Shown: positions 33,149 through 64,000, numbered from the stretch's first letter. The stretch is 64,000 nt of DNA from an uncultured Bdellovibrionales bacterium (GCA_964624415.1 CAZUWR010000001.1:3855-67854), one strand, 5' to 3'. Notes: generated by a model not told the origin, from the letters alone. Numbers and translations are program-made.

Positions 33149-33244
33149 TTGACAAAAGTCAATTATGGGTGTATAAAGAAATGTCTTATCAGTGAGATGC
33201 CTTACTGATCGAAAGACCAATGAAATTGAAATGAGGAGAAAAAG
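33149..33244 (+). promoter_or_regulatory. promoter plus conserved hairpin leader, copy A
   Basis: TTGACA (33149-33154), 17-nt spacer, TATAAA, then GTCTTATCAGTGAG...ACTGATCGAAAGACCAATGAA and a GAGGAG RBS. It is about 80 percent identical by eye to copy B. Confidence 0.6.
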
Positions 33245-34172: not shown

Positions 34173-34261
34173 TTGACAAAAGTCGGTTACGGGTGTATAA
34201 TACGGTGTCTTATCAGTGAGGAATCTGACTGAGGAAAGACCAATGAACGAGGAGAGTACAA
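34173..34261 (+). promoter_or_regulatory. promoter plus conserved hairpin leader, copy B
   Basis: TTGACA (34173-34178), 17-nt spacer, TATAAT (34196-34201), then GTCTTATCAGTGAG...ACTGAGGAAAGACCAATGAA and a GAGGAG RBS. Confidence 0.6.
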
Positions 34262-41552: not shown

Positions 41553-41609
41553 TTTATAGAATCATAGTGTTTATGGTTTGTTGGTGTTTACACACAAGGA
41601 TATTGTTGT

Positions 41610-41680
41610 TGGGGAGGAAGGGATCGAACCTTCGCATGGGGGCTTCAAAGGCCCCTGCCTTACCGCTTGGCTACTCCCCA
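41610..41680 (-). tRNA. tRNA-Gln (anticodon UUG), CCA not encoded
   Basis: The reverse complement reads TGGGGAG-TA-GCCAAGCGGTAAGGCA-G-GGGGC-CTTTGAA-GCCCC-CATGC-GAAGG-TTCGATC-CCTTC-CTCCCCA. It has a 7-bp acceptor stem, a GGTTCGATCC T-arm and the anticodon loop CU-UUG-AA. Confidence 0.9.
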
Positions 41681-41707
41681 ATAATGACTTTTTCTCTTAT
41701 AGACAAA

Positions 41708-41734
41708 GATCCTTCGACTACGCTCAGGATGACA
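41708..41734 (+). repeat. GTCATCC...GGATC palindromic element, half copy
   Basis: GATCCTTCGACTACGCTCAGGATGACA is identical to 59188-59214. It is intergenic, between dnaX and tRNA-Gln. Confidence 0.65.
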
Positions 41735-41843
41735 ATCATGAGTTTTTTGTAAATATTCAGAGAAGAGACTCTGAAACGACCTGCCCGAAATGCAACGCAT
41801 AACTTTGCAGGCGGGGTTCAGAATAACATCCTCATTTCAAAAA

Positions 41844-43493
41844 TCAGGCGACGATCTCACCACCGAGAATGCTCATCGCTTCGGTCAAAATCGGGCTGAT
41901 CGGAGCTTGCGCGACGGGTGCTGATTGAGGTGTCGCGCTCTCGTCCAAGACCACTTTGATCTTTGTTTTTGACTCTAAAATTGTATCAAAAGCGCTCTCT
42001 ACTGTCAATTTGTTCTCGACGGCATTGATTTTGTCTTTGTACATCGGGAACTTGGCGCCGAGCACGACACTACCGCCATCGCCGATATACAAGGGTCTGC
42101 AATTGCCGAGAGTGAGGGCGAGCGAGGAGTTGAGCTCGCGCACTTTGGCGATGATAGATTGCCAGTGGTCTTTGACCGTGTCTATGCTTACGGCAGCTGT
42201 TTCTGTGGGTGCAGTTGTTGGTATGACCGGTTCGGCGGCTGGCGAGGTGAGGGGTTGTGTGCCGATTACATAGGGGGCTGCGGGTTCTTTAACAAGCGAT
42301 GCTTGAGTAAGTGTTGTTTGTTGTTTGTTGTTTGTTGTTAATTGTTGACTGTTCTCCGTTTTCTGTTTATTGTTCACTGTTTGCTGTTGATTGCTCACGG
42401 ACTCAGGCACAAGAAACTTGACCACAGCGATTTCGAGCGGGAACTGGGCGATGGAGGCAATACGGATTTCTTTGCGCGCCGATGAGAAGAGATCGATGAG
42501 CGTGATGATCCCGGAGGTGGTGAGGCTTTCCGCACAAGCGGTGAGCGTATCGATGTGCTCTCGCGTCATTTCGAGGGCGAGGGTGTCGGCAAGGGTGCGG
42601 TCGACACTGATAAGAAGCATCTGCCGAAGCGAGTGTAGGAGGGAATTGACGAAGATATACAGATCGGCACCAGTTTCCACCAGTTGATTGATAAGGGCGA
42701 TAGCATTTTCCATCTCCCCGTGCGTGAGATGCGCCAGAAGCGTATCGACTTTTTGTTGATCGGTGATGCCGAGTATGGAGGAGACTTCGTCGGTCGTGAT
42801 AGTTTTGTCTTCGAGACTGATGACCTGCGTGAGGAGGGATTCGGCATCGCGCATACCACCCTCGGCGGCAAGGGCGATCATCTCGAGCGCAGGCTTGTCG
42901 ATAGCTACTCCCTCGCTTGCAGCGATACCGGCGAGCTTTTCGATGATATGATCGAGCGGAAGGCGTGAGAAATCGAAGCGCTGGCAGCGGGAAAGGATGG
43001 TCTCGGGGACTTTGTGTAAAGAGGTGGTAGCGAGAATGAAGATGACATGCTTGGGTGGCTCCTCGAGTGTCTTAAGGAGCGCGTTGAAAGCGCCGATGGA
43101 GAGCATATGTACTTCATCGATGATATAGACCTTGAAGGGCGCTTGTGTTGGGAGGAGTTTGATAGAGTCGCGCAGTTCGCGAATATTGTCCACGCCGGTA
43201 TTGGAAGCGGCATCGATTTCAATTACATCAAGCGAGCTTCCGCTCGCCATAGCGAGGCAGTGAGCGCACTGAAGACAGGGTTCCACACCTTTCCGATCAA
43301 GACAGGTGACTGCTTTTGCCAAAAGCCTGGCAGTGGTGGTTTTACCGGTACCGCGCGGCCCCGTAAAGAGATAAGCCTGGCCGAGGCGATCGTTTTTGAG
43401 GGCATTGGTGATGGTTTTGATGATATGGGTTTGCCCGATGACATCGGAAAATTGTTGCGGGCGGTATTTGCGGTACAGTGTATTGGTAGACAT
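41844..43493 (-). CDS. dnaX: DNA polymerase III subunit gamma/tau
   Basis: YRKYRPQQFSDVIGQ, Walker A GPRGTGKTT, zinc module CLQCAHC, DEVHMLS and SRC motifs. Gln/Asn/Thr-rich linker after domain III. The start is ATG at 43493 or TTG at 43508. Confidence 0.9.
   Translation of the reverse strand: MSTNTLYRKYRPQQFSDVIGQTHIIKTITNALKNDRLGQAYLFTGPRGTGKTTTARLLAKAVTCLDRKGVEPCLQCAHCLAMASGSSLDVIEIDAASNTGVDNIRELRDSIKLLPTQAPFKVYIIDEVHMLSIGAFNALLKTLEEPPKHVIFILATTSLHKVPETILSRCQRFDFSRLPLDHIIEKLAGIAASEGVAIDKPALEMIALAAEGGMRDAESLLTQVISLEDKTITTDEVSSILGITDQQKVDTLLAHLTHGEMENAIALINQLVETGADLYIFVNSLLHSLRQMLLISVDRTLADTLALEMTREHIDTLTACAESLTTSGIITLIDLFSSARKEIRIASIAQFPLEIAVVKFLVPESVSNQQQTVNNKQKTENSQQLTTNNKQQTTLTQASLVKEPAAPYVIGTQPLTSPAAEPVIPTTAPTETAAVSIDTVKDHWQSIIAKVRELNSSLALTLGNCRPLYIGDGGSVVLGAKFPMYKDKINAVENKLTVESAFDTILESKTKIKVVLDESATPQSAPVAQAPISPILTEAMSILGGEIVA
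42313..42352 (+). repeat. heptanucleotide tandem repeat plus A/C-rich element in the dnaX linker
   Basis: (GTTGTTT)x3 plus GTTGTTA at 42313-42340. The segment 42320-42352 matches dnaE 61738-61767. Confidence 0.65.
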
Positions 43494-43592
43494 AAGGAAT
43501 AGGGTCAAAAATCAAAGCATATACACCTAGTATAGCATATGCAAAACCTCCCTGTTCAGGAGGCTTTGTAGAAAGATGATATGTCTGCGCTC

Positions 43593-44201
43593 TTATCGTT
43601 TGAATACCCAGAGTTTGTACCCGATGAAGTTCCAGGTCAGGACGAGTATGGAAGCGGTGGCGGAAGCGATGGAAGCCCAGGCTTTGTCGGTGATATTTCC
43701 GGGAGAGGTGACGATGTTGATCATTATCCAGGTGATACCGGCATTGATAACGAGGCCGACGATACTGACGAGCCAGAATTGGAGCACTTCTTTGCTCTTC
43801 GCCTCGCCTTGTTTTTCAAATGACCAGTACTTGTTCCAGATAAAGCTATTGATGATAGCAGCATTGACCGAGACGATTTTGAATCCGAGTATCGCGTTTC
43901 CGGTCGCGATATCCGTCATATAGATGAAAACATTGAAAATACCCAAATCAATAATGGTATTGGTCACGCCGATGATGCCGAATTTGCTGAGTTGGAAAAA
44001 AAACCTGAGGCGGTTGATGCGAGAGGCGATGAAATACGCGAGACTGATGCCGAGTGTGGCGAGAAGCGCGATGATAAAAACGAAAGCGAGATAGGGGATA
44101 GGAATTTTTGATCCGAGATTGGTGATGATGATAGGAGCTAAAAGTCCGATAAAGGCGCCGTTGATAGCGGCGAATGACAGGTCACGGAGGCGTAGGGTCA
44201 T
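43593..44201 (-). CDS. GtrA-family membrane protein
   Basis: 202 aa with 4-5 TM segments and a KFGIIGVTNTIIDLGIFNVF motif. Confidence 0.7.
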   Translation of the reverse strand: MTLRLRDLSFAAINGAFIGLLAPIIITNLGSKIPIPYLAFVFIIALLATLGISLAYFIASRINRLRFFFQLSKFGIIGVTNTIIDLGIFNVFIYMTDIATGNAILGFKIVSVNAAIINSFIWNKYWSFEKQGEAKSKEVLQFWLVSIVGLVINAGITWIMINIVTSPGNITDKAWASIASATASILVLTWNFIGYKLWVFKR

Positions 44202-44259
44202 AGCGGTGAGGGTAAGTGTGATGAGTTAGGGATGAGGATGAGAGTGATGTGCTGTATTA

Positions 44260-45075
44260 CTATTCGCTTTTTTTCATTTCATTTTCGATTTCTTCAAGAT
44301 CCTTGACCCACTCATCGACGACCGCCTGCTTGTCTTCATCAGGAGCAGCTTCTTTGGCTTTGGATTTCTTGGCTGGTTTGGCTTTTTCTTCTGTTTCTTC
44401 TGGGTCGGTGGCTTCCGTATGAGTCGGCGCATCATCGTGCAAGTCTTCTTTCCACGCATGCATATCTTGCGGAGCAGCGTGCTCTCGAGGAGGCATCCAA
44501 TGCGACATTTTTTGGCTGCCTTTCTGGAGGATGTTTTCGATCGATGCCCAGGTGGCCTCGGTATCGCGCGGGAAGACGATAGCGACTTCATCGCCCGGCT
44601 CGCCCTTGAAATATGTGACGGATGCGAGAAGGACTTTGTATGGCCGTCCATCAGCGAGGATGCAGTAGTTGCCGTTTTCATCCTGACTGATGATACCCAA
44701 AGCGTGCTTGCGCTCGACTGGGCCGATCTGCTTGTAGATGAAAGAACCTTCGGGAGTGATGGTCAATTTGAGTACATCGCCTTCGATGAGTTTTGATTTG
44801 GAAGCGTAGTTGGCAGGGACAGGGTATTGCTTGCCATCGGTACCGAGCATGATCTGCCCGTCAAACATGCCTTCAACGACGGTGCCATCGGTCACTTCTT
44901 CTACCTTTCGTTTGCGACCGACTTTCTTCTTGCCTTCAATCTGAAGCAGCATGGCCTTGGCGCCCTGTATGGTTTTTTCCGCGCTGTTGATCATATCGCG
45001 CAGAGCCTGAATTTTTTGAGTAGCCTCTTTTTCTTTGGTTTCCGCGTCTTGAGGCGCATCGTTGTGTTGTATCAT
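44260..45075 (-). CDS. hypothetical protein (coiled N-terminus, beta-rich core, Lys/Glu-rich tail)
   Basis: 271-aa ORF. The core reads GKQYPVPANYASKSKLIEGDVLKLTI. No family name recognised. Confidence 0.5.
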   Translation of the reverse strand: MIQHNDAPQDAETKEKEATQKIQALRDMINSAEKTIQGAKAMLLQIEGKKKVGRKRKVEEVTDGTVVEGMFDGQIMLGTDGKQYPVPANYASKSKLIEGDVLKLTITPEGSFIYKQIGPVERKHALGIISQDENGNYCILADGRPYKVLLASVTYFKGEPGDEVAIVFPRDTEATWASIENILQKGSQKMSHWMPPREHAAPQDMHAWKEDLHDDAPTHTEATDPEETEEKAKPAKKSKAKEAAPDEDKQAVVDEWVKDLEEIENEMKKSE

Positions 45076-45247
45076 CTTGTTTGCGGCGAATCACTTTTCA
45101 TTTCTCTAAAGTATGAAAAGCGTCTGCTTTTTTATTTTTATTTTACATATTCAGTATAGCATATTCTCTCTCAAGCGAGCAAGAGAATTTTAGTATAGAG
45201 TTTGCGACGGTAAATTTTGTAATGTATAGTGAAGTTAATTATTTATT

Positions 45248-47218
45248 ATGAATTATATGTATACACGAAGAGTATTATTGGCAGGCATCGGAGTATGTGT
45301 AGGTCTGTTTATTCTGGCGTGGTTTTGGGTAGCTCGATCGATATTTTTTCGCTCTACCGATATGACTATTCCTACGCAGAACATCTCTTCAGTTCACGTA
45401 CCTTCCTCAACGAAGGATGTAGAAAATATAACGGTGCCTGTTGGTGAATCCTCTGCATACGCACCTCCGGAAATGAAAACCTTCACAGAGTTTTCCAAGG
45501 ACGATATCCGTAAGGGGCAAGTGACATGGCAGGAACCTCAGGATATGGGTGATTTGGGGTGGACCTCTCACGATGTGTATACTGGAAAATATCAGAGTAA
45601 GAATGGGTATGCTTACTCCGGGGGTGTTAAATATTTGAAAGTTGGTACAGTGAAAGAGGGGATGTACACCGGGTCTGAAGTCATCGTCGTTTTTTCTTGG
45701 CTCTACACCGGAGATTTTCCAAGGGGTGAGTCGCCTGATATTCAGCATTACTTACGAAAAGATGGTAAGGTAACGCTGCTTACACATGCTGCTACGGCTA
45801 ATGGAGTCGAAGTTCCTTTGCCGACTTCAGATGTTAAGGCTGATGATTCCTCTCAAGATGATGATGCAAAAGCATTAATCCTGAAAGCTTCGAATGAAGT
45901 TGTTGATAATGAAACAAGAATTGAGGATTTAGCTCTGTATCCAACCGAATTCCAGGGTAGGAATAGCCGTGAAACATTTGTTAATAATGGGTATGCTGAT
46001 AGAGCGGTTTTTTCAAGTAAGGGTCTTAAGCTAGCGTTTGAAAGTTTGGAATTTGGACAGGTGTGGATGACGGATACGTCGTTCAAGGGAGAAATCCGCA
46101 CAGAGTTAAATAGTTATCAGGGTCGCGTGTATGATTCTAAGCCAGATAAAGATGGTAAAGACACTTTTAAAAGAGTAAAGAAGTATTACGATCCAGTTGT
46201 ATCGGGTGGATTTTATCTGAAACGTCCGGATGGTATTATGGAGGCGTACCGTTTGAAGTTCGATATTTTCGATATATTTGATCGACAAGGTGTACTCCAG
46301 GCGACATGGAATGATGGCTCAAAGAACACAACTTCGTATGAAGAATATCCGGGAGGATGTGGTATGACGGAGTATGTGTACGATAAGACAAACAGTGTCA
46401 GTATTAAAAAGGATTTAGTGATAATCGGAAAGACGGAGCAAGGAGATCTTTTGTATGGGTATAGGGAAAGCAATTCTGCATTGAAAAAGTATTTTGATGA
46501 AACATACTTACCGTCCCTTGGCAGGCAATCAAGTGCGGATTTGGGCATGGACAGAAATCAGCTTTGGAAAGAATTTCTGCAGAAGCGCCCAATAGTGTTG
46601 TGGCAGGATTCTTTTGGCCGCTTACTGGCGTTCTATAATACTGATACCATACCTTTGGCTGAATGCGGTAAACCGGTAGTATATCTGTACCCGGAAAAGA
46701 GTGCGGATGTTTCGGTAAGAGTCTTTCCGAGCGAAGGTGTGAGTGTTTCTGATCCTGCTTACAATGATGGTTGGGATGTTGTGGCGCAGCCAGATGGTAC
46801 CCTTATGAATAAGATGGATGGAAAAAATTACCCCTATCTATTTTGGGAAGGCGGAAGTGATACGCTTTACCAGACTCCTGAACAAGGATTTGTGGCTGCA
46901 AAAGAAGATCTGAGTGTATTTTTTGATGAGAAATTAAGCCAGCTTGGACTCTCAGCTAAAGAATCATCTGATTTCAAAGAATTTTGGATTCCGAAGATGA
47001 CCGAGAAAAGTAAGCCTTACTATTTCATTACTTTTCTTTCTCGTGCACAAATTGATAGATTGGCTCCTCTTGCAATAAATCCGAAGCCAGATACGATTAT
47101 CCGTGTCATGATGGATTATGAAGGACTGGATTCGTGGAAGGCTGTGCCGGGTTATGCTATCAAAACACCGAAGAGAGAAGGGTTTACCGCGGTTGAATGG
47201 GGGGGAAGAATGAAATAA
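45248..47218 (+). CDS. large membrane-anchored extracytoplasmic protein, unknown function
   Basis: 656 aa with an N-terminal TM. The conserved-looking C-terminal block reads KPVVYLYPE...YLFWEG...FWIPKM. Confidence 0.55.
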   Translation: MNYMYTRRVLLAGIGVCVGLFILAWFWVARSIFFRSTDMTIPTQNISSVHVPSSTKDVENITVPVGESSAYAPPEMKTFTEFSKDDIRKGQVTWQEPQDMGDLGWTSHDVYTGKYQSKNGYAYSGGVKYLKVGTVKEGMYTGSEVIVVFSWLYTGDFPRGESPDIQHYLRKDGKVTLLTHAATANGVEVPLPTSDVKADDSSQDDDAKALILKASNEVVDNETRIEDLALYPTEFQGRNSRETFVNNGYADRAVFSSKGLKLAFESLEFGQVWMTDTSFKGEIRTELNSYQGRVYDSKPDKDGKDTFKRVKKYYDPVVSGGFYLKRPDGIMEAYRLKFDIFDIFDRQGVLQATWNDGSKNTTSYEEYPGGCGMTEYVYDKTNSVSIKKDLVIIGKTEQGDLLYGYRESNSALKKYFDETYLPSLGRQSSADLGMDRNQLWKEFLQKRPIVLWQDSFGRLLAFYNTDTIPLAECGKPVVYLYPEKSADVSVRVFPSEGVSVSDPAYNDGWDVVAQPDGTLMNKMDGKNYPYLFWEGGSDTLYQTPEQGFVAAKEDLSVFFDEKLSQLGLSAKESSDFKEFWIPKMTEKSKPYYFITFLSRAQIDRLAPLAINPKPDTIIRVMMDYEGLDSWKAVPGYAIKTPKREGFTAVEWGGRMK

Positions 47219-47225
47219 AGCGGAT

Positions 47226-48836
47226 ATGAAAATATTGAGTGACCGCAAAATCATATACTATCTGTTGTTGGCTGGTGGCATAATCGCTACCAGCCTTTCG
47301 TACGCTTTTTTGAAAAGTGTTGATATTCAATCAAGCCTTACAAATGGAACGGAAAAAAAGAGCAGTGAACAATCTTTGTCAATCGTTTCTTTTATTACGC
47401 CCCATCATCTCGCTGCTAAAGAGTTTATGCATAAGATTTTTCATGATGTCAGCGATGCGGTCGGAGGTGATTCAATCGATCGTGTTATCTTGATAAGTCC
47501 GAATCATTTTAATATCGGAAAAAGTTGGGTGATCGGTTCTGAAAAAAGTTGGGAGACTCCCTTTGGTATGTTGTATGCGGATGCTGGTATGAGCAGTCAT
47601 CTTAAGGATGGGGTTTTTTTTGGCCAAGATATTTTTGAGCGTGAACATGGGATAAGGAATATCCTACCCTTCGTAAAAGAGTATTTTCCACAGGCTGCTG
47701 TAGTACCATTGGCTTTACGCGATGGATTTTCTGATGAAGGGGTAGATGCATTAGCACAAAGACTTGCACAATTATCAAGTCCGCATACGATCCTCATTGT
47801 TTCAGCTGACTTTTCTCATTACTTAGACTGGAATTTTTCTCGTTTTCATGATGCTAAAGCTAAAGAGATTCTCAGTCGTATGGATATGGATCATATCGGG
47901 TTACTGGACGTGGATTGCGCATCATGTTTGCGTGTCGCTATGCAATATTCAAGAATTCGCCATGCTGATCATTTTCAATTTGTTTCCCGATCGAGTTCTT
48001 TGGAGCTGGCTGGGTCAAATAGAGTCGGCGAAGAAACAAGTCATATAACCGGGTATTTTTCTTCGCAACTATCGCAGTCAGATGATGCATTGGATACAAC
48101 ACGTCTTCTGTTTTCCGGACAAGTCACACCGCAGGCCATGACTGAAAGTGCAAGAAGAATGTTTATGGGTCAAGATTTCAATATTTTTGAACAGGATGGC
48201 AGTATTGTATCGAATGTTTTCGATGACACTTCTTACAACTCGTCTTTGCATGTTTTGCAAAATTATTCACTGATGGATGATAAAGAATTATCTTCCGCAC
48301 GGATAATACACGGAAAACGGTTTGTGTTTGTTGATGCTGATATGCGAATTTCCGATGATGCCTCCGCGCAACGCGTATTGAATGAGGTGAGCGAGGCAAA
48401 ACAGCACAGTGATTTTGTGGTGGCTTTGTGGAGCAAAGATAAACAATCCCGAGGTTCTATGGGAAATGCTGACGCACAAAGGAAGCAGGCTCATGATCTT
48501 ATCGATGCAGGAGCGGATGTTGTGATTGGTTTGCGGGCTCAGAATTTTGAACCGATCGAGATATATAATAATAAAGCGATTTTTTCTTCTTTGGGCTATA
48601 ATGCCTCGCAGTGTAGGCTTTACAATCGTATGTGTGCAGGCGTGCAACTAGGGATAGGTTTTTCTTCGGATGCGATAGAATATGTTCTTATGCCCATTAT
48701 GAAGCAAAAAGATGGGCAAATTGTATTAGCAAAAAGTCCGGAAAGGGATATTATCCTTAAAAAGTTATCGGATACAAGGATCAGTAATTCGATGAAGCAA
48801 TCACTGCAAGAGGGGATGTTTACCTTACATAAATAG
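47226..48836 (+). CDS. Memo/AmmeMemoRadiSam-B-like domain fused to degenerate CapA-like (metallophosphatase) domain
   Basis: N-terminal TM. The Memo-like motifs are FITPHHLAA, ILISPNHF, EHGIRNILPF and VSADFSHYL. The C-terminal AHDLIDAGADVVIGLRAQNFEPIEIYNNKAIFSSLG resembles CapA, but GLRAQN stands where GHHPH is expected. Confidence 0.5.
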   Translation: MKILSDRKIIYYLLLAGGIIATSLSYAFLKSVDIQSSLTNGTEKKSSEQSLSIVSFITPHHLAAKEFMHKIFHDVSDAVGGDSIDRVILISPNHFNIGKSWVIGSEKSWETPFGMLYADAGMSSHLKDGVFFGQDIFEREHGIRNILPFVKEYFPQAAVVPLALRDGFSDEGVDALAQRLAQLSSPHTILIVSADFSHYLDWNFSRFHDAKAKEILSRMDMDHIGLLDVDCASCLRVAMQYSRIRHADHFQFVSRSSSLELAGSNRVGEETSHITGYFSSQLSQSDDALDTTRLLFSGQVTPQAMTESARRMFMGQDFNIFEQDGSIVSNVFDDTSYNSSLHVLQNYSLMDDKELSSARIIHGKRFVFVDADMRISDDASAQRVLNEVSEAKQHSDFVVALWSKDKQSRGSMGNADAQRKQAHDLIDAGADVVIGLRAQNFEPIEIYNNKAIFSSLGYNASQCRLYNRMCAGVQLGIGFSSDAIEYVLMPIMKQKDGQIVLAKSPERDIILKKLSDTRISNSMKQSLQEGMFTLHK

Positions 48837-48930
48837 CTTGTTTGGTTATAGTAGTTAAGTGCCCCTCTCAGTTTTTGAGTATAAAAATAGCGGCTCAACA
48901 TACACAATCGTATGTTTCGCCGCACTCATT

Positions 48931-49272
48931 TCAATCTTCGCAGATAGTTCGTTTATTGCATTGTCGCCATTGGAGCACACATTTTTCTAGAACATCCAAA
49001 TAGTGTCGGACACAAATACCCTTACCACCCGATTCCAGGTCTAAAGGATTGCCTCTGGTGACCTGAAAGCTATTATCGTCATCCGGCGTCTCATGACAGA
49101 TGATTTTACCTTTGACTACGACGTAGCAGGCACCGCCGCCCATCATACCAATGTATGGTCCTGGCACCTCGACGGTTTGCCCTGGCGGAATCGCAACATC
49201 TTCGCCGTATCCTACTCTGGTATCAAAGCAGAACGCGATGATTGCATAACCCGTGTTATTTGTGACTTGCAT
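48931..49272 (-). CDS. hypothetical Cys-rich protein
   Basis: 113-aa ORF with 8 Cys. No family recognised. Confidence 0.4.
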   Translation of the reverse strand: MQVTNNTGYAIIAFCFDTRVGYGEDVAIPPGQTVEVPGPYIGMMGGGACYVVVKGKIICHETPDDDNSFQVTRGNPLDLESGGKGICVRHYLDVLEKCVLQWRQCNKRTICED

Positions 49273-49502
49273 CTGTATCTTCTCTGAAAATGTCGGTAAC
49301 TTTCCGACAGCGTATTGTAGGACAGTAAGCCTTCGATGTCAATATATGGGGTATAGCGTGTTTCGTTTGACAATAAGGAATGATTGGAGTACACTGGTGA
49401 ATAGAAAAGCCTGTGGGGGCTTTTTAAAAAACCCAAATTTCCATATTTCCGTAAAGTGGCTTATACAAGCATTTTATAGACATATCGGACCCAATACACG
49501 CT

Positions 49503-49691
49503 ATGAGCAACATCCTGAAGTTTATACAAGAAGCGAAAGTCGAGCTGATGAAGGTCACCTGGCCAAACAAGCAGCAGATCATCCAAAGCACGGTGCTGGT
49601 GGTCGGTTTGACCTTTGTGATGGCGGTTTTCCTCGGAGGACTGGACTATGGTTTTGGATATATTCTCAAATCATTTATCACCACAAAGTAG
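49503..49691 (+). CDS. secE: preprotein translocase subunit SecE
   Basis: 62 aa with FIQEAKVELMKVTWPNKQQ followed by a single TM. It lies directly upstream of nusG. Confidence 0.85.
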   Translation: MSNILKFIQEAKVELMKVTWPNKQQIIQSTVLVVGLTFVMAVFLGGLDYGFGYILKSFITTK

Positions 49692-49748
49692 GACTTTTGA
49701 ATTTGGCACCTAATACATCGGTTTAAACATATTTTTAAATAACATCGT

Positions 49749-50294
49749 ATGGCAAAGCAAACTCAACATCACGGACGCGCCTGGTATGTGCTCCATACCT
49801 ATTCGGGATACGAGGACAATGTGTCCCGCAACCTCAAGCAGCGTATCGAATCTATGGATATGCAGGAGCTCATCTTCGATGTCATCGTCCCGAAGGAGAA
49901 GAAGATCAAGATCAAGGCGGGTAAGCGCACAGTGATCGAGGAGCGCATTTATCCGGGGTATGTGCTGGTGGATATGGTGGTGACGGACGCATCCTGGTAT
50001 GTGGTACGCAATACGCCAAATGTGACCGGTTTCATCGGACTGGGTACGACACCGACACCGGTAGACCCACGAGAAATCGAGCAGCTCAAGAAGCGTATGG
50101 GTGTGGAAGAGCCGAAGTACAAGATGGACGTCAAGCTCAATGATCCTGTCAAAATCACCGAAGGACCGTTCAAGAACTTCGAGGGCAAGATTCAGGAAGT
50201 GGACGAAGAGCGAGGCAAGGTTAAAGTGTTGGTTTCCTTGTTCGGACGTGAGACACCGGTTGAATTGGACTTCCTCCAGATTAAAAAGGTGTAA
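49749..50294 (+). CDS. nusG: transcription termination/antitermination factor NusG
   Basis: The NGN domain start WYVLHTYSGYE and a C-terminal KOW (GPFKNFEGKIQEVD). Confidence 0.9.
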   Translation: MAKQTQHHGRAWYVLHTYSGYEDNVSRNLKQRIESMDMQELIFDVIVPKEKKIKIKAGKRTVIEERIYPGYVLVDMVVTDASWYVVRNTPNVTGFIGLGTTPTPVDPREIEQLKKRMGVEEPKYKMDVKLNDPVKITEGPFKNFEGKIQEVDEERGKVKVLVSLFGRETPVELDFLQIKKV

Positions 50295-58789: not shown

Positions 58790-59779
58790 TTAGAAGAAGA
58801 TCTCTGTTTCCGAGGCAGCCTCTATCCAGTGGATATCAGCGCCCTGTTTTTCCCATCGGCGCAGCCAAGTGCGCTGTCTTTTGGCATAGTGGACGATGTC
58901 GAAGAAAAGTTTTTCTTTCATTGTCGGTTCGTCGATGTTTCCCTGCAAGAAGCGAGCTATCCATCGGTATTCAAGACCGAAGGCCTCCAGTTTTTCCCAT
59001 GCCGCGCCATGCTCGTGGAGGCGCCGCACTTCTTCGATCATGCCCTGATCGAAGCGTTCGTCCAGGCGTTTTCGTATATTCGCATCCAGGATGTCTTTTG
59101 GAGGATTGAACGCGATAATGAAATAGTTGCTTTGATTGATATATTGAGGTTTGGGATGTGTCATTCCGATCGTAGCGGAGGAATCCGAGATCCTTCGACT
59201 ACGCTCAGGATGACATATCATGGGGTTGCTCTGCAGTGAAGGGACTTTTCCAAGTGATTGTACGATTTCCAGAGCCCGGATAAGCCGGATGGGATTGTTT
59301 CTATCGATAGTTAGGGCTCTTTCCGGATCGATGGCTTGCAGTTTTGCAAAGAGTTCTTGGATAGAAAGGTGCGAAAGTTCTTTGCGCAGTATGAGATCGG
59401 GCAAGACCTCCGGGAAGGATTGGTTATCGATGAGCGCCTGCGCCCAAAAAAGCGTACCTCCGCAGAGGATGGGGAGTTTGCCGCGGCTTCGGATGTCTCG
59501 GATGATTGCTTGGGCATCACATTTGAAGTCCGTGACATTGTACTCCTCGTGCGGCTCGCGAATATCGAGGAGGTGATGCTGAGCGAGCGACTGCTCTTCG
59601 GTAGTCACCTTACCCGTCCCGATATCCATTCCGCAGTACACCTGTCGGCTGTCGGCTGAAATAATCTCGCCATCGTATTTGAGGGCCAGTGAAATTGCCA
59701 AAGAAGACTTGCCCGAGGCTGTCGGCCCGACGATGGCAAGGGTTTGTGATCTGTCGAATTTTCTTGACGTATGATTCAT
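58790..59779 (-). CDS. miaA: tRNA dimethylallyltransferase, carrying an in-frame 57-nt palindromic element
   Basis: P-loop GPTASGKSS, SADSRQVY, GGTLFW and RLIRALEI motifs. The segment CHPERSRRISDSSATIGMT is encoded by the repeat at 59158-59214. Confidence 0.9.
   Translation of the reverse strand: MNHTSRKFDRSQTLAIVGPTASGKSSLAISLALKYDGEIISADSRQVYCGMDIGTGKVTTEEQSLAQHHLLDIREPHEEYNVTDFKCDAQAIIRDIRSRGKLPILCGGTLFWAQALIDNQSFPEVLPDLILRKELSHLSIQELFAKLQAIDPERALTIDRNNPIRLIRALEIVQSLGKVPSLQSNPMICHPERSRRISDSSATIGMTHPKPQYINQSNYFIIAFNPPKDILDANIRKRLDERFDQGMIEEVRRLHEHGAAWEKLEAFGLEYRWIARFLQGNIDEPTMKEKLFFDIVHYAKRQRTWLRRWEKQGADIHWIEAASETEIFF
59158..59214 (+). repeat. 57-nt palindromic element (two inverted GTCATYC...GGAWTC arms) inside miaA
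   Basis: TGTCATTCCGATCGTAGCGGAGGAATC-CGA-GATCCTTCGACTACGCTCAGGATGACA. Its length is divisible by 3 and the reading frame is preserved. Confidence 0.7.
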
Positions 59780-59806
59780 AGTATGTTAGTATAGGCTATT
59801 CAGAAT

Positions 59807-59873
59807 GGAAATGCAAGCGGTTTTCTGAACGTAGAAAAAGTACTTGCTGAACGGGCTGAAGTTTGGCTCTTTA
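59807..59873 (+). promoter_or_regulatory. conserved structured 5' leader, copy 1 of 3
   Basis: GGAAATGCAAGCGGTTTTCTGAACGTAGAAAAAGTACTTGCTGAACGGGCTGAAGTTTGGCTCTTTA. It aligns with 61042-61107 over its whole length and with 60733-60774 over the 5' core. Confidence 0.5.
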
Positions 59874-59896
59874 TCAATTGAATACGAGGTAATGAT

Positions 59897-60280
59897 ATGC
59901 ATACTGTAGCGCAAAAATTGGCATTGCTAACAGCCATCGTAACGGTGATAGGAGGAGTTACAGCAAGTCTGTATTATAGGCAAGTATGGATACTACCTTT
60001 GACTGTGTTTGTCATGAGGGGAACAGAGATGCTTCTTCATATTGAAACAGAGATGACATTGATATATTCTTCGGAGGAACTCGGAAAAAGGGTTGCTCGA
60101 TGGATATTTATCTTGACTGTTCTTGCGGCGGTAATCGGTATTTTTGATACCACTACAGCAGGTATAGTCTGTTTTGTAATGATATTTCTCGTCTCATGTA
60201 AACTCGCTCAAACTCTGGCAATCTACATCAAAAAATATGATCAAATTTACGATTTCCACAAGGTTTTTAGTGAGGAATAA
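59897..60280 (+). CDS. hypothetical 4-TM membrane protein
   Basis: 127 aa, preceded by conserved leader copy 1 and a GAGG RBS. Confidence 0.45.
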   Translation: MHTVAQKLALLTAIVTVIGGVTASLYYRQVWILPLTVFVMRGTEMLLHIETEMTLIYSSEELGKRVARWIFILTVLAAVIGIFDTTTAGIVCFVMIFLVSCKLAQTLAIYIKKYDQIYDFHKVFSEE

Positions 60281-60291
60281 GGAGTAGTGTG

Positions 60292-60591
60292 ATGAAGAGA
60301 AAACAAAAAACGAAAACAAAAAAATGCATATCTATCTCCGAGGAGTATTTTCAGGAACTCCTAAACTTTCTTCAAAAATCGTATAAGAACTTACTCGAAT
60401 ACGCGTTTTATAAAGAGGCTGAGATCTTTTTGGGCGCTATAAAAGCCATGAAGAAAGGGTGTTTCGGAAAGGCAAAAAAACTTTTTCAAAGGTTAACTGC
60501 CGATGTCCAAAGAACTCTTAGCGAAGGGTATCAGGAGGATGATTACATGCGATCAGTACGTAATCTTAAGCCCGCGATAGATGAATTGTGA
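60292..60591 (+). CDS. hypothetical Lys-rich helical protein
   Basis: 99 aa. AAGGAG lies 7 nt upstream of the ATG at 60292. Confidence 0.4.
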   Translation: MKRKQKTKTKKCISISEEYFQELLNFLQKSYKNLLEYAFYKEAEIFLGAIKAMKKGCFGKAKKLFQRLTADVQRTLSEGYQEDDYMRSVRNLKPAIDEL

Positions 60592-60687
60592 TTTGAAAGA
60601 TGAAGATGTAAAGCCGAAACGTCAATGACGGAGTAGGCTTTTATACTACCCGAAAATGCTTCTTTGAGCCGTATTTGTCAGATATGA

Positions 60688-60716
60688 TTGACAAATGTTG
60701 CGGCGTATGCTATACT
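60688..60716 (+). promoter_or_regulatory. sigma-70-type promoter
   Basis: TTGACA, 17-nt spacer, TATACT. Confidence 0.55.
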
Positions 60717-60732
60717 GGGTTTTTCACGTCAG

Positions 60733-60795
60733 CAATGCGGGCAGTTTTCCCAAGACGGAAAAGCGCTTGCGAACTAACCTGAAAACAGGTTTTTT
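60733..60795 (+). promoter_or_regulatory. conserved structured 5' leader, copy 2 of 3, ending in an intrinsic terminator
   Basis: CAATGCGGGCAGTTTTCCCAAGACGGAAAAGCGCTTGCGAAC, followed by AACCTG-AAAA-CAGGTT-TTTTT. Confidence 0.5.
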
Positions 60796-60819
60796 GAAAC
60801 TCTTATGGAGGATGCAGCT

Positions 60820-60972
60820 ATGACGCTGTCAACAATACTGATATGGGTAGTTTTCCTTTTTATTGTCTATTTATTTTATCTGGCGATGAAGGGAACGAAA
60901 CCAGTAGGGTGTTCTGTGTGGGTACAAATGAATAAATATGCCCCGCACAAAACCGATACCACGTTCGATTAA
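60820..60972 (+). CDS. possible 50-aa single-TM peptide (not in ORF track)
   Basis: GGAGGA RBS. The peptide is MTLSTILIWVVFLFIVYLFYLAMKG... It lies downstream of a promoter and leader copy 2. Confidence 0.4.
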   Translation: MTLSTILIWVVFLFIVYLFYLAMKGTKPVGCSVWVQMNKYAPHKTDTTFD

Positions 60973-61041
60973 AATCAGTAGTCGACGACGGAGGTCTCAT
61001 ATTCTTACATCAAGAAGAGGCCTCCGAAAATTATTCACACC

Positions 61042-61107
61042 GGAAATGCGAGCGGTTTTCCGAAACGGAACAAATGCTTGCCGACCGGGCTGAAGTTTGG
61101 CTCTTTA
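61042..61107 (+). promoter_or_regulatory. conserved structured 5' leader, copy 3 of 3
   Basis: GGAAATGCGAGCGGTTTTCCGAAACGGAACAAATGCTTGCCGACCGGGCTGAAGTTTGGCTCTTTA. Confidence 0.5.
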
Positions 61108-61129
61108 AAAATTTTACGAGGATATGATT

Positions 61130-61411
61130 ATGAATGTTGTATTTATGATAGAGTGTATAACACTTTGCGTAATGGGTCATGGACACGGATATGCTATGAA
61201 TTGGCTGGTAATTGAGGATATGACAGAAAATGATTTTAAAGACGAAAATATTCAAGAATGGATTCTATTGAATATTTTCAAAAAAGGAACAATACCAATT
61301 GGCCAGGATATTGTGACCGTGAAAAAATCGATGTTTTCTGATGGGCATGAAGTTGACGGATTCAGTGAATCCAAGAGCTTTAAGGTGAAGTTTTCACTAG
61401 AAAGAGTGTAG
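61130..61411 (+). CDS. hypothetical protein
   Basis: 93 aa (95 aa if translation starts at 61124). It is preceded by leader copy 3, whose RBS-to-ATG spacing matches copy 1. Confidence 0.4.
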   Translation: MNVVFMIECITLCVMGHGHGYAMNWLVIEDMTENDFKDENIQEWILLNIFKKGTIPIGQDIVTVKKSMFSDGHEVDGFSESKSFKVKFSLERV

Positions 61412-61427
61412 TCAGCGATAAAGTCGC

Positions 61428-61459
61428 AAGAGCCTGCTTAAACATAAAAGCAGGCTCTT
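61428..61459. terminator. hairpin between convergent genes
   Basis: AAGAGCCTGCTT-loop-AAGCAGGCTCTT, a 12-bp stem. Confidence 0.55.
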
Positions 61460-61476
61460 AAAAATGTGCAAAAAAC

Positions 61477-64000
61477 CTACTCCACACTGGCAACTCCGGC
61501 AATATCCGCGAGTTGTTTTTTTGTATCTTCGGTCGCTTCGATGGTGTGCGGGGTGTGTATGGTGGCGCCCTGGACGCGGACATAGACGGGCGTCTCGCCC
61601 TTGGGGAGACGGGCGAGGGTAGCGGAGACGGTTTCGAGGAGCTGTTTGCTTACAGCGCTGTCTTGGAGAGTGATGGTGAGGCGGAGATTTTTACCGGATC
61701 CCGCATCAAGTACGGGATGACTTAGATGATGTTGTCCGTTGGTTGTTGGTTGTTGATTGTTGACTGTCTGTGGTTCGTTTTTCGCTCGTGTCAAGAGGAC
61801 TCGCTTGAAAGTCTCGACGGACTGCAAATCGACTTTCTCGGCATCCTCGGCGAGTATTTTTGGGACGCCGTCTTCATTGGAAAGTCTGCCCTGCACGATG
61901 ACGAGTTCGTCTTCTATCCACATACCGCCGGTTTTTTCTACAGCGCGCGGGAAGACGAGCACTTCGACGCGCCCGGTCAGGTCTTCGAGGCTGACGAAAA
62001 ACATTTCTTGCTGGCGTTTGGTGTAGGTTTTGCGCACGGTGCTGATGACACCGCCCACTTTGACGCTGATACCGCTCTCTCGCTTTTCCAAATCATGAAT
62101 CGGAATGGTAATCTGATCGAAGTATTCCTTGAAATCGCTGACCGGATGATCGCTGACATAGAGGCCGAGGAGTTCCTTTTCCCACTTGAGCTTTTGTTTT
62201 TTCTCGATAGGTGGCACGTTTTCGAGGCGTAGCTCGGAGGTTTCGATCGGCATGCTTCCGAAGAGGCTGTCGGTGTGAGTTTCTTTTATCTTCTGCAGAT
62301 TGCGGGAGTGTTTGAGGATTTTGTCGATGCTGGCAAGGAGCTGACTGCGCTCGCCGAAAGCATCGAGGGCGCCCACTTTTGAGAGAGCTTCGAGGGATTT
62401 CTTGTTGAGGTCTTTGGTCTGGACACGCTCGACGAAATCGGCGATGGAGCGGAACTTTCCACCGCGCTTGCGCTCTTTGACGATTTCTTCAGCAGCTACT
62501 TTGCCGACGTTTTTGATGGCATTGAGTCCGAAGCGGATACGCTCTTTTCCTTCGGCATCCGGGACAACGGCAAATTCCTCGAAGCTTTCATTGACATCCG
62601 GTGGCAAGACCTCGATGCCCATCTCGCGGCATTCATTGACCTCGATAGCGATGCGATCCGTCGTGTCCTGGTCGGAGGTGAGGAGGGCGGCCATAAAGGA
62701 TGCCGGGTAATGTGCTTTAAGGTAGGCGGTCTGATAGCCGATGAGCGCATAGCAGGCAGCGTGCGAACGGTTGAAACCATATCCGGCGAACGGTTCGATA
62801 AACGCGAAGACTCCCTCGGCTATATCTTTGCTGATGCCTTGCTCACCGCAACGCGCCACGAATTTGATGCGCTGCTCTTGAATGAGCTCGAGGATTTTTT
62901 TGCCCATCGCTTTGCGAAGCACATCGGCTTCGCCGAGGGTGAAGCCGGCCAGGTCGCGGGCGATTTGCATCACTTGCTCCTGATAGACGGCCACGCCATA
63001 GGTAGTGGCGAGTATCGGTTCAAGTTTCGGGTGCAGGTACTTCACGGTTTTGCGTCCGTGTTTGCCATCGATAAAATCAGGGATCCAGTCCATCGGTCCC
63101 GGACGGTAGAGGGCGACCATAGCGATGATGTCTTCGAGGACGGTCGGCTTAAGCTGGCGCAGGTAGCGCTTCATACCATTGCTTTCCAGCTGGAAGACGC
63201 CGGTCGTGTGGGCCTTTTGGAGTAGCTCATAGGTTTTTTCGTCATCGATAGGGAGGCGATCCATAATGTCGGAAATGGAAGCGGTCTTCGGGTCAAGGCC
63301 GATACGGATGATGAGTTCGTCGAGTTTGCCCAATGCGCGGATGATGCGGATGGTGTTTTGCATGATGGTGAGGTTTTTGAGTCCCAAAAAGTCCATCTTG
63401 AGCAAGCCGATCTTTTCCACGGCGCTGAATTTGGTGGAGGAAGCATACTGTGTCACGGTGCCTTCTCGTGTGCCGGAGATTTTTTGGATGGGGGTGTATT
63501 CGGTGACCGGGTCTTTGGTGATCACCACGCCGCAGGCATGCATCGAGGCATGGCGCGCGAGACCTTCGAGGTTTTTGGCCACGTCGATGAGCTTGCGCGC
63601 TTCCGGATCCGCATCGTAGAGTTTTTTGAAATCCACCGCTTCTTCGAGCGCTTTTTTCATCGTGGAAAACATCGGGATGAGTTTGGCGACTTGATCGCAG
63701 AGCGCATACGAATAGCCCAGTGCACGACCCGTGTCGCGGATAGCCGCGCGCGCCGCCATTGTTCCGAAGGTGATGATCTGTGCGACGTGATCGTGGCCGT
63801 ATTTTTCGCGGACATAGTTGAGCACATCATCGCGACGATCATCGGCGAAGTCCATATCGACATCGGGCATCGAGATACGTTCCGGATTGAGGAATCGCTC
63901 GAAGAGGAGATCGTATTCGATTGGATCCATGTTGGTGATACCGGTGAGGTAGGCGACGAAACTTCCCGCCGCCGAGCCGCGTCCCGGCCCCACCATGATC
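61477..64000 (-). CDS. dnaE: DNA polymerase III alpha subunit (5'-truncated by window edge)
   Basis: GPGRGSAAGS, MPDVDMDF, FNRSHAACYA and HhH/OB regions. The C-terminal extension contains repeat-derived NNQQPTTN and SHPVLDAGSGK. Confidence 0.9.
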   Translation of the reverse strand, partial: IMVGPGRGSAAGSFVAYLTGITNMDPIEYDLLFERFLNPERISMPDVDMDFADDRRDDVLNYVREKYGHDHVAQIITFGTMAARAAIRDTGRALGYSYALCDQVAKLIPMFSTMKKALEEAVDFKKLYDADPEARKLIDVAKNLEGLARHASMHACGVVITKDPVTEYTPIQKISGTREGTVTQYASSTKFSAVEKIGLLKMDFLGLKNLTIMQNTIRIIRALGKLDELIIRIGLDPKTASISDIMDRLPIDDEKTYELLQKAHTTGVFQLESNGMKRYLRQLKPTVLEDIIAMVALYRPGPMDWIPDFIDGKHGRKTVKYLHPKLEPILATTYGVAVYQEQVMQIARDLAGFTLGEADVLRKAMGKKILELIQEQRIKFVARCGEQGISKDIAEGVFAFIEPFAGYGFNRSHAACYALIGYQTAYLKAHYPASFMAALLTSDQDTTDRIAIEVNECREMGIEVLPPDVNESFEEFAVVPDAEGKERIRFGLNAIKNVGKVAAEEIVKERKRGGKFRSIADFVERVQTKDLNKKSLEALSKVGALDAFGERSQLLASIDKILKHSRNLQKIKETHTDSLFGSMPIETSELRLENVPPIEKKQKLKWEKELLGLYVSDHPVSDFKEYFDQITIPIHDLEKRESGISVKVGGVISTVRKTYTKRQQEMFFVSLEDLTGRVEVLVFPRAVEKTGGMWIEDELVIVQGRLSNEDGVPKILAEDAEKVDLQSVETFKRVLLTRAKNEPQTVNNQQPTTNGQHHLSHPVLDAGSGKNLRLTITLQDSAVSKQLLETVSATLARLPKGETPVYVRVQGATIHTPHTIEATEDTKKQLADIAGVASVE
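61695..61720 (+). repeat. GTCATCC...GGATCC hairpin element inside dnaE
   Basis: GGATCCCGCATCAAGTACGGGATGAC has an ATCCCG/CGGGAT stem. It encodes SHPVLDAGS on the minus strand. Confidence 0.55.
61738..61767 (+). repeat. A/C-rich element in dnaE shared with dnaX
   Basis: On the coding strand, ACAGTCAACAATCAACAACCAACAACCAAC compares with ACAGTCAACAATTAACAACAAACAACAAAC in dnaX. Confidence 0.6.

Follow-up and report, generated by a model that had tools for sequence, protein, structure and literature searches.

A heptanucleotide array and a small palindromic unit in the interdomain linker of a Moraniibacteriota DNA polymerase III alpha subunit

The 64,000-nt stretch analyzed here (GCA_964624415.1, CAZUWR010000001.1:3855–67854, filed under an uncultured Bdellovibrionales bacterium; hereafter the window) ends inside dnaE, the gene for the alpha subunit of DNA polymerase III (Pol III), whose stop codon lies on the minus strand at 61477–61479 and which continues past the window end. 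The host is a Candidatus Moraniibacteriota bacterium of the Candidate Phyla Radiation (CPR). Near its 3' end, dnaE carries two DNA-level additions, an array of A/C-rich heptamers and a 25-nt hairpin unit, both lying wholly within a disordered linker between the OB fold and the C-terminal domain. Our preferred reading, to which we give a probability of about 0.68, is that this linker was lengthened by a locally grown heptamer array and by a hairpin unit, both of which are tolerated as spacer.

To place the two additions in the protein, we compared the DnaE fragment with known Pol III alpha subunits. The fragment matches Taq, E. coli, and M. tuberculosis Pol III alpha in the PDB with E values of 1e-156 to 1e-184, and Pfam places the OB fold at residues 645–721 of the fragment. 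These alignments stop at residue 1082 of 1160 in E. coli alpha and at residue 1104 of 1220 in Taq alpha, so a C-terminal domain of such a size is expected in the window's DnaE. AlphaFold2 predicts that the last ~70 aa are folded, with a predicted local distance difference test score (pLDDT) of ~90, and this unit forms the very end of DnaE, behind the OB fold, as expected of the ~70–110-aa C-terminal domain of Pol III alpha. Across 11 CPR homologs it is conserved, and G212 and T227 do not vary; the top Foldseek matches of the DnaE tail are to the Taq alpha-tau_c-DNA complex 4iqj over ~250 columns, covering the whole 250 residues. By position, the ~70-aa domain is equivalent to the Pol III alpha tau-binding domain, and it is probably that domain. 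The initial annotation had described a DnaE C-terminal extension built from repeat elements; instead, the C terminus is this conserved folded domain and only the 29-aa linker before it holds the elements. Both sequences it pointed to are present, although displaced by 1–3 nt (the hairpin is at 61697–61721 rather than 61695–61720, and the dnaX match begins at 42323 rather than 42320).

Among 80 dnaE 3' ends of Patescibacteria (CPR) from GTDB (L003–L082), DnaE has two architectures: 27 genes end directly after the OB fold without a C-terminal domain, and ~50 have a linker of 10 to >100 aa followed by the ~70-aa domain. The length and sequence of this linker are hypervariable in every homolog alignment. 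Independently, a Logan assembly of SRR12487045 reproduces the window sequence, with 0 mismatches over 59188–63522 and identity also over 41708–49914, and therefore the dnaE linker sequence is not an assembly artefact. Further upstream in the protein, at residue ~575 of the fragment, the internal beta-clamp-binding site reads TDSLFG (HTDSLFGSM) in place of the Q-x-SLF of homologs, a Gln-to-Thr change.

On the coding strand, the linker region reads AAAAACGAA CCACAG, then the heptamer array, CTAA, GTCATCCCGTACTTGATGCGGGATC, CGGT, and AAAAATCTCCGC, which places the hairpin toward the linker's 3' end; the flagged region as a whole translates as KNEPQTVNNQQPTTNGQHHLSHPVLDAGSGKNLR. The array consists of the units ACAGTCA, ACAATCA, ACAACCA, ACAACCA, ACGGACA, and ACATCAT (consensus ACANNCA). 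Tandem Repeats Finder (TRF) reports a period of 7 with 4.3 copies and 91% matches at 61738–61767, and a scan for ACANNNA x4 matches 61733–61767. An Rfam scan of 61400–61900 returned no family.

We then looked for close relatives of this DnaE. GTDB species representatives yielded none, the best reaching ~40–43% identity in the DnaE tail; two (L084 and L085) came from a scan of Joint Genome Institute (JGI) metagenomes. The DnaE proteins of the window, L084, and L085 are mutually 91–92% identical over ~800 aa, yet their three linkers are unrelated. The L085 linker is 63 nt shorter than the window's and has neither heptamers nor hairpin; its core, at the array site, is the 27-nt A/C-rich CCTCCGATACAAACCGCACCAAATCAA (PPIQTAPNQ). 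The 42-nt array and the 25-nt hairpin explain essentially all of the length difference between the window and L085. In L084, a GTCATCCTGAACTCGTTTCAGGATC unit (GHPELVSGS) follows straight after AAAAACGAA, and there is no heptamer tract. The next ortholog outward, L083/P0001 (59% identity), also lacks both array and hairpin; its peptide LESEPLADQ was considered as an ancestor of SHPVLDAGS and rejected, as there is no DNA similarity and the closer orthologs lack it. The DnaE linker turns over very fast, and the array and the hairpin are two lineage-specific additions that it has tolerated. At ~2232–2300, the L084 DnaE linker also contains a second, nested hairpin element, GAGATGCTGAAAC...GTTCAGCATAAC, read as EMLKQ...VQHN and enclosing an inner palindrome, apparently another small repeat family, possibly with an insertion of its own.

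Other CPR DnaE linkers carry non-triplet tandem repeats of their own. In L003 (1980–2144) there are AGAATAA x3.7, a 14-nt unit CAACAAACAACTGA x2.6 at 100%, and an 8/16/24-nt array of CCATTCA type; in L014 (1653–1694), ACA(A/G)GGA (ACAAGGA) x5.4; and in L061 (1918–1999), two arrays, CAGCAAT x4.9 and CCGAAAG/CTGACAG x2.6. Readings of the L014 units as a CsrA-like ACARGGA site and of ACAGTC as a primase site were considered but lack support.

Table. Features of the window discussed in the text (positions counted from its first letter).
Feature	Position	Strand	Basis
dnaE 3' part (DNA polymerase III alpha)	61477..64000	-	translation; Pfam DNA_pol3_alpha, finger, HHH_6, OB fold
conserved DnaE C-terminal domain, ~70 aa, beta-alpha-beta-beta-alpha-beta	61480..61689	-	homolog conservation; pLDDT ~90; Foldseek
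disordered interdomain linker EPQTVNNQQPTTNGQHHLSHPVLDAGSGK, 29 aa, holding both elements	61690..61776	-	pLDDT <50; tail residues 153–181
25-nt palindromic unit GTCATCCCGTACTTGATGCGGGATC, 8-bp stem, 5-nt loop, read (S)HPVLDAG(S)	61697..61721	-	sequence location; fold
dnaE array, 6 A/C-rich heptamers, encodes TVNNQQPTTNGQHH	61726..61767	-	TRF; ACANNNA x4 scan
dnaX (clamp-loader tau/gamma subunit), 549 aa from ATG	41844..43493	-	Pfam DNA_pol3_delta2, lid, gamma3
dnaX linker array, ~13 heptamers, encodes SNQQQTVNNKQKTENSQQLTTNNKQQTT	42308..42394	-	TRF; ACANNNA x4 scan
dnaX 30-mer paired with dnaE 61738–61767, out of frame	42323..42352	-	phase 2 versus dnaE phase 1
dnaX second copy of array head, ACAGTGAACAAT, in the dnaE frame (phase 1)	42369..42380	-	QTVNNKQ versus DnaE QTVNNQQ
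miaA 57-nt imperfect palindrome, two inverted GTCATYC..GRATC units, in frame, read CHPERSRRISDSSATIGMT	59159..59215	-	fold
intergenic GTCATCCTGAGCGTAGTCGAAGGATC repeat copy between dnaX stop codon and tRNA-Gln	41707..41734	-	28-nt exact repeat
tRNA-Gln	41608-41680		

The other half of the original proposal concerned dnaX, whose protein is recovered exactly in the Logan assembly. Its linker holds a larger array of the same heptamer class, with the coding-strand units GCAATCA, ACAGCAA, ACAGTGA, ACAATAA, ACAGAAA, ACGGAGA, ACAGTCA, ACAATTA, ACAACAA x3, and ACAACAC, and it is because of this array that dnaE and dnaX resemble each other. TRF finds (TGTTGTT) x4.0 at 100% in 42312–42339, and both period 7 x6.6 and period 21 x2.7 in 42343–42398. 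In DnaX orthologs of 72, 66, and 59% identity, the linker is P/T/S-rich, unrelated, and free of the Q/N/T tract; in the 72%-identical ortholog (L086), the linker is 69 nt shorter and the array is missing. The initial annotation was right that both linkers have gained and tolerated repeat sequence. These additions are lineage-specific, and the encoded peptides are not kept in DnaE or DnaX orthologs that lack the repeats.

The dnaE sequence ACAGTCAACAATCAACAACCAACAACCAAC (61738–61767) matches its dnaX counterpart at 27 of 30 positions, and the two are read in different frames, as TVNNQQPTTN in DnaE and NSQQLTTNNK in DnaX. Both observations were correct as first reported; the step from different frames to maintenance as DNA rather than as protein was not valid. 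In a perfect heptamer array, each of the three frames yields one and the same cyclic 7-aa peptide (TTNNKQQ in the case of ACAACAA), and moving an alignment by one heptamer unit moves the frame by one. With a unit length of 7, which 3 does not divide, arrays built from the same unit always admit in-frame as well as out-of-frame alignments, and therefore the frame difference between dnaE and dnaX says nothing about transfer. An in-frame pairing does exist: dnaX contains a second copy of the array head, overlooked at first, in the same frame as dnaE. The better argument for an origin at the DNA level is the 7-nt period itself, together with the absence of the tract from close orthologs. Among ~180 TRF arrays, 24 have a period of 7, against ~14 each for periods 6, 8, 10, and 11, an enrichment so mild that we make no claim of a special preference for period 7.

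To determine how surprising the 27/30 match is, we replaced a whole-window dinucleotide shuffle, which is too lenient for low-complexity DNA, with local shuffles, Markov models, and heptamer-profile nulls. A match of this quality was reached in 0/300 mononucleotide shuffles of each tract, and in 0/300, 1/300, and 2/300 trials with Markov models of order 1 (trained on the tracts), 2, and 3, respectively. When two independent arrays were drawn from a pooled heptamer profile, however, 20/1000 trials reached 27/30 and 334/1000 contained an exact 12-mer; resampling of whole units reached 27/30 in 110/1000 trials, and permutation of unit order in 3/1000. As an empirical control, the DnaE linker array of L003, another member of the Moraniibacteriota whose DnaE tail is ~40% identical, matches the window's dnaX at 26/30 and the window's dnaE array at 24/30. 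The 27/30 match is real, and it clearly exceeds what composition and Markov nulls produce, but it mostly reflects two arrays of the same unit class and becomes marginal (~2%) once the shared heptamer unit is allowed for. A common dispersed element shared by dnaE and dnaX, as first proposed, is thus undemonstrated.

We next asked whether the hairpin belongs to a repeat family. Read as SHPVLDAGS, as first annotated, the unit with an added C, GTCATCCCGTACTTGATGCGGGATC(C), spans 61696–61721; its fold has a free energy of -5.5 kcal/mol (z -2.4), and 6/200 shuffles fold equally well. Its absence at that position in both L084 and L085 gives it an insertion-like pattern of presence and absence. For counting family members we used patterns defined by their termini, in place of a generic search for GTCAT plus a hairpin, which was unspecific (15 matches versus ~7 in shuffles). 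The pattern GTCATCC..GGATC is found 6 times in 370 kb, where 0.6 would be expected; for the window, chance predicts 0.22 occurrences. The copies in dnaE, L084, and L007 are 25 nt long, and the window's own miaA and intergenic copies are 26 nt long. The dnaE unit is identical to the L084 unit at 18/25 positions and to the L007 unit at 17/25 (counted by hand), its interior being largely unlike that of the window's two other copies; the center (a YTYG loop region) is CTTG in dnaE, CTCG in L084, and CTTG in L007. The dnaE and L084 units share the fold ....((((((((.....)))))))).... in identical register, and where their stems differ, pairing is kept (C:G versus T:A, T:G versus A:T). The L084 copy lies at a different linker position from the window's hairpin, so the DnaE linker has probably accepted such units more than once.

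The L007 copy, GTCATCCTGAGCTTGTCGAAGGATC, read as VVSHPELVEGSS (SHPELVEGS), lies in miaA and shares its length, termini, and central TTG with the dnaE unit, although it folds weakly, with a 5-bp stem. The same His-Pro frame, xGT-CAT-CCx, is used by all four intragenic copies. Allowing up to 3 mismatches, the dnaE variant is single-copy in the 64-kb window. The likeness first noted between the dnaE hairpin and the miaA element extends to the termini, but not to the fold: by itself, the 26-nt miaA unit is no more stably folded than shuffled sequence (z 0.15), and it makes a hairpin only as a 57-nt inverted pair (-13.1 kcal/mol, z -3.4). The window's miaA (58790–59779, minus strand) has a Pfam IPPT match of 263 aa on a 243-position model, consistent with a ~19-aa insertion. 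Two exact 28-nt copies of TGTCATCCTGAGCGTAGTCGAAGGATCT are present in the window, one intergenic (41707–41734) and one within miaA (59188–59215). Logan unitigs of SRR12487045 break exactly at these copies, L001 ending at the intergenic one and L002 starting at 59188, as expected for multi-copy DNA, which implies further copies in the genome. Both copies are directly preceded by CATGAT(A)T. In L007, a metagenome-assembled genome from another member of the Moraniibacteriota, miaA lies downstream of dnaE and the unit (2359–2383) comes just after the GTGKVT motif; this is a different site from that in the window's miaA, so the gene was hit independently in two lineages. We consider it likely that the dnaE hairpin is a member of the GTCATCC..GGATC palindromic repeat family, and it is plausibly a diverged member of a family that inserts in frame, much as the palindromic elements of Rickettsia do.

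How, then, might the linker have acquired its present form? The array would have expanded from a short A/C-rich seed, such as L085 has, through slipped-strand or tandem duplication; since such a seed, CCTCCGATACAAACCGCACCAAATCAA, lies at the same site, local expansion is favored over import. The hairpin unit may have arrived through the spreading of a small palindromic family that is dispersed in the genome and the clade and that came to lie repeatedly in frame inside genes. Both additions could then have persisted by being free of stop codons in the frame used, by keeping the downstream frame, and by lying in a spacer whose sequence is unconstrained. All the residues that they encode are polar and compatible with disorder (T, N, Q, P, H, S, G), and units made only of A and C, which lack stops in any frame and whose codons specify just T, N, Q, K, P, and H, would survive in such a spacer. 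A function beyond that of tolerated spacer is unlikely for either addition, and none is needed as an explanation. What we describe is the ordinary fast evolution of a disordered linker, a common phenomenon in a new host, and derivation of an element from dnaX is unsupported.

Several observations weigh against this account. The unit order ACAGTCA, ACAATNA, ACAACNA, ACAACNA is common to dnaE and to the second dnaX copy, and the rarity with which permuted unit orders reach 27/30 (just 3/1000) leaves room for copying between the linkers. Growth by 7 nt within an essential open reading frame (ORF) needs steps of three units or compensated frameshifts, which local expansion leaves unexplained. In 370 kb of CPR DNA, a dnaE-centered sample, all ACANNNA x4 arrays lie in DnaE or DnaX linkers (those of the window's dnaE, the window's dnaX, and L014, with L003 a near miss), a restriction that looks non-random. 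As for the hairpin, the dnaE unit has no second copy in the 64 kb, its interior is only 68–72% identical to other family members, and its termini alone are expected 0.22 times per window.

In a rival account the two tracts are homologous DNA: ectopic recombination, gene conversion, or a small mobile module would have copied a block of ~28–42 nt (ACAGTCA-ACAATNA-ACAACNA-ACAACNA) from one linker to the other, after which each copy diverged. The 27/30 match includes an exact 12-mer head, stands far above the composition and Markov nulls (0–2/300), preserves a unit order rarely recovered by permutation, and joins two tracts that are both missing from the closest orthologs. Yet under the heptamer-profile null the match has a P of ~0.02, with an exact 12-mer in 33% of trials, and unit resampling attains it in 11%; the L003 array, from an unrelated genome, comes within one position of it (26/30 against dnaX), showing that such similarity arises without transfer within a genome. 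Moreover, the flanks of the two tracts are dissimilar, no further copies of the tract occur in the 64 kb, and L085 has its A/C-rich seed at the homologous dnaE position, and we regard copying as unlikely. The hairpin, for its part, might be an accidental palindrome in a fast-evolving linker, its 12 terminal bases shared with the family by chance. This is doubtful. Only GTCATCC and GGATC are common to the dnaE unit and the window's own copies, a pair of termini that chance would place 0.22 times in a window; the unit is unique in the 64 kb, 6/200 shuffles match its fold, and the miaA unit folds differently and weakly. The L084 copy, however, shares the 25-nt length, the central CTTG/CTCG loop, the 8-bp stem register, and the His-Pro frame, with stem differences that keep base pairing, and the L007 copy shares length, termini, the His-Pro frame, and the central TTG. 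In addition, the hairpin is missing at its position in orthologs that are 91–92% identical, and the same linker gained a family copy elsewhere in L084.

Readings that assign the tracts a function fare less well. In E. coli and Taq, the C-terminal domains of Pol III alpha and tau bind each other, and both tracts lie just upstream of these domains; together with in-frame matches between DnaE QTVNNQQPTTNGQ and DnaX QTVNNKQKTENSQ, and between NQQPTTNGQ and SQQLTTNNKQ, this could suggest that the linkers share a short motif (QTVNNxQ / QQxTTN), maintained as protein, whose role would be to bind a partner of both proteins or to adjust the alpha-tau tether. We give this almost no credence, and it is largely refuted by the absence of the peptides from DnaE orthologs at 91–92% and a DnaX ortholog at 72% identity; the region is also predicted to be disordered (pLDDT <50), and protein-level selection would not create a 7-nt DNA periodicity. 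A frameshift or phase-variation switch, in which gain or loss of units, or slippage, would strip the C-terminal domain from both proteins and make tau gamma-like, is scarcely more credible. It has in its favor a unit that is not a multiple of 3, the position of the arrays directly upstream of both C-terminal domains, alternative frames that end ~7–24 codons past the tracts (read by eye from the sequence), the 27/80 CPR DnaE genes that naturally end right after the OB fold, and the production of gamma by E. coli and Thermus at the equivalent point of dnaX. But the arrays are short and contain few perfect units (no more than 4.0 in dnaX and ~2 in dnaE), neither tract has a slippery heptamer of the form X XXY YYZ or any homopolymer reaching 7 nt, the SRR12487045 Logan assembly is identical to the window across both, and off-frame stops that near are expected by chance. 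More broadly, ACANNNA-type arrays, seen in both window genes and in dnaE of L003 and L014, might be a recurrent, non-random feature of the alpha and tau linkers before the C-terminal domain in Moraniibacteriota, possibly with a role at the nucleic-acid level, which we consider very unlikely. Were it true, unit-slippage frameshifting could generate the same two truncated products (gamma-like tau, and alpha lacking the C-terminal domain) and so uncouple the polymerase from the clamp loader, or a translational pause could aid the co-translational assembly of alpha with tau; a frameshifting role finds no backing in the two tracts, which show neither a slippery motif nor a long perfect repeat, nor any polymorphism between assemblies.

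Compared with known systems, the hairpin unit behaves like the Rickettsia palindromic elements (RPEs), selfish palindromic repeats of ~100–150 bp, specific to Rickettsia, that lie in frame within protein-coding genes (PMC10969869). Like RPEs, it is a dispersed palindrome found in frame inside unrelated housekeeping genes (dnaE and miaA, and likewise in relatives), contributes a short peptide where the protein structure tolerates one, and varies in presence among close relatives. Unlike RPEs, it is 25–26 nt long (57 nt when paired), five times shorter, in a CPR host, and unrelated in sequence. REP/BIME and Neisseria dRS3-type palindromes are alike in their 20–40-nt unit, in conserved termini around a stem-loop, and in their multi-copy state, assembly breaks, and orientation bias relative to transcription. 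REPs, however, are extragenic by definition and linked to RAYT (IS200/IS605-like Y1) transposases, whereas 4 of the 6 GTCATCC..GGATC matches are intragenic, a count made without checking where the L019 copy lies. Literature searches by sequence (GTCATCCTGAGCG and similar) and on CPR palindromic repeats returned nothing relevant.

The heptamer arrays resemble simple-sequence expansions in disordered linkers in their lineage specificity, length hypervariability, Q/N/T bias, predicted disorder, and absence from close orthologs. Typical coding repeats have 3n periods; the one unusual trait here is a DNA period of 7 (14 in L003), so that the 7-aa peptide period is a by-product and slippage by a single unit shifts the frame. 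As with contingency repeats, the unit inside the ORF is not a multiple of 3, but the long perfect polymorphic tract typical of them is lacking, with at most 4.0 perfect units and a window identical to the Logan unitigs. In other bacteria, gamma is made from dnaX by programmed frameshifting (E. coli, at A AAA AAG) or by transcriptional slippage (Thermus). The window's dnaX likewise has a repetitive A-rich tract just past DnaX domain III, at the point where tau and gamma diverge. Unlike in those systems, there is no X XXY YYZ, no long A run, and no adjacent downstream stimulatory structure, and dnaE has a similar tract too; reading 42296–42404 by eye at the tau/gamma junction, we found no X XXY YYZ heptamer and no A run of at least 9.

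These findings leave the known mechanism of Pol III unchanged. They indicate that interdomain spacers turn over quickly even in core replisome subunits of a reduced CPR genome: across three DnaE proteins that are 91–92% identical, slipped tandem repeats and small palindromic repeats have produced linkers with no relation to one another. For annotation, CPR peptides like xHPELVxGS and TTNNKQQ are better treated as footprints of DNA repeats than as motifs, and out-of-frame similarity between non-triplet low-complexity tracts should not be taken as evidence for a shared mobile element.

Two further repeats were observed in the window. The poorly coding region that separates miaA from dnaE holds a 46-nt direct repeat, GAAMAARTRCTTGCYGAMCGGGCTGAAGTTTGGCTCTTTA..., whose copies at 59834–59879 and 61068–61113 are 85% identical and spaced by 1234 nt. 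A 60-nt repeat, TTGACAAAAGTC...GGGTGTATAA, occurs at 33149–33208 and 34173–34232 with 78% identity and looks like a duplicated promoter and leader before two neighboring genes.

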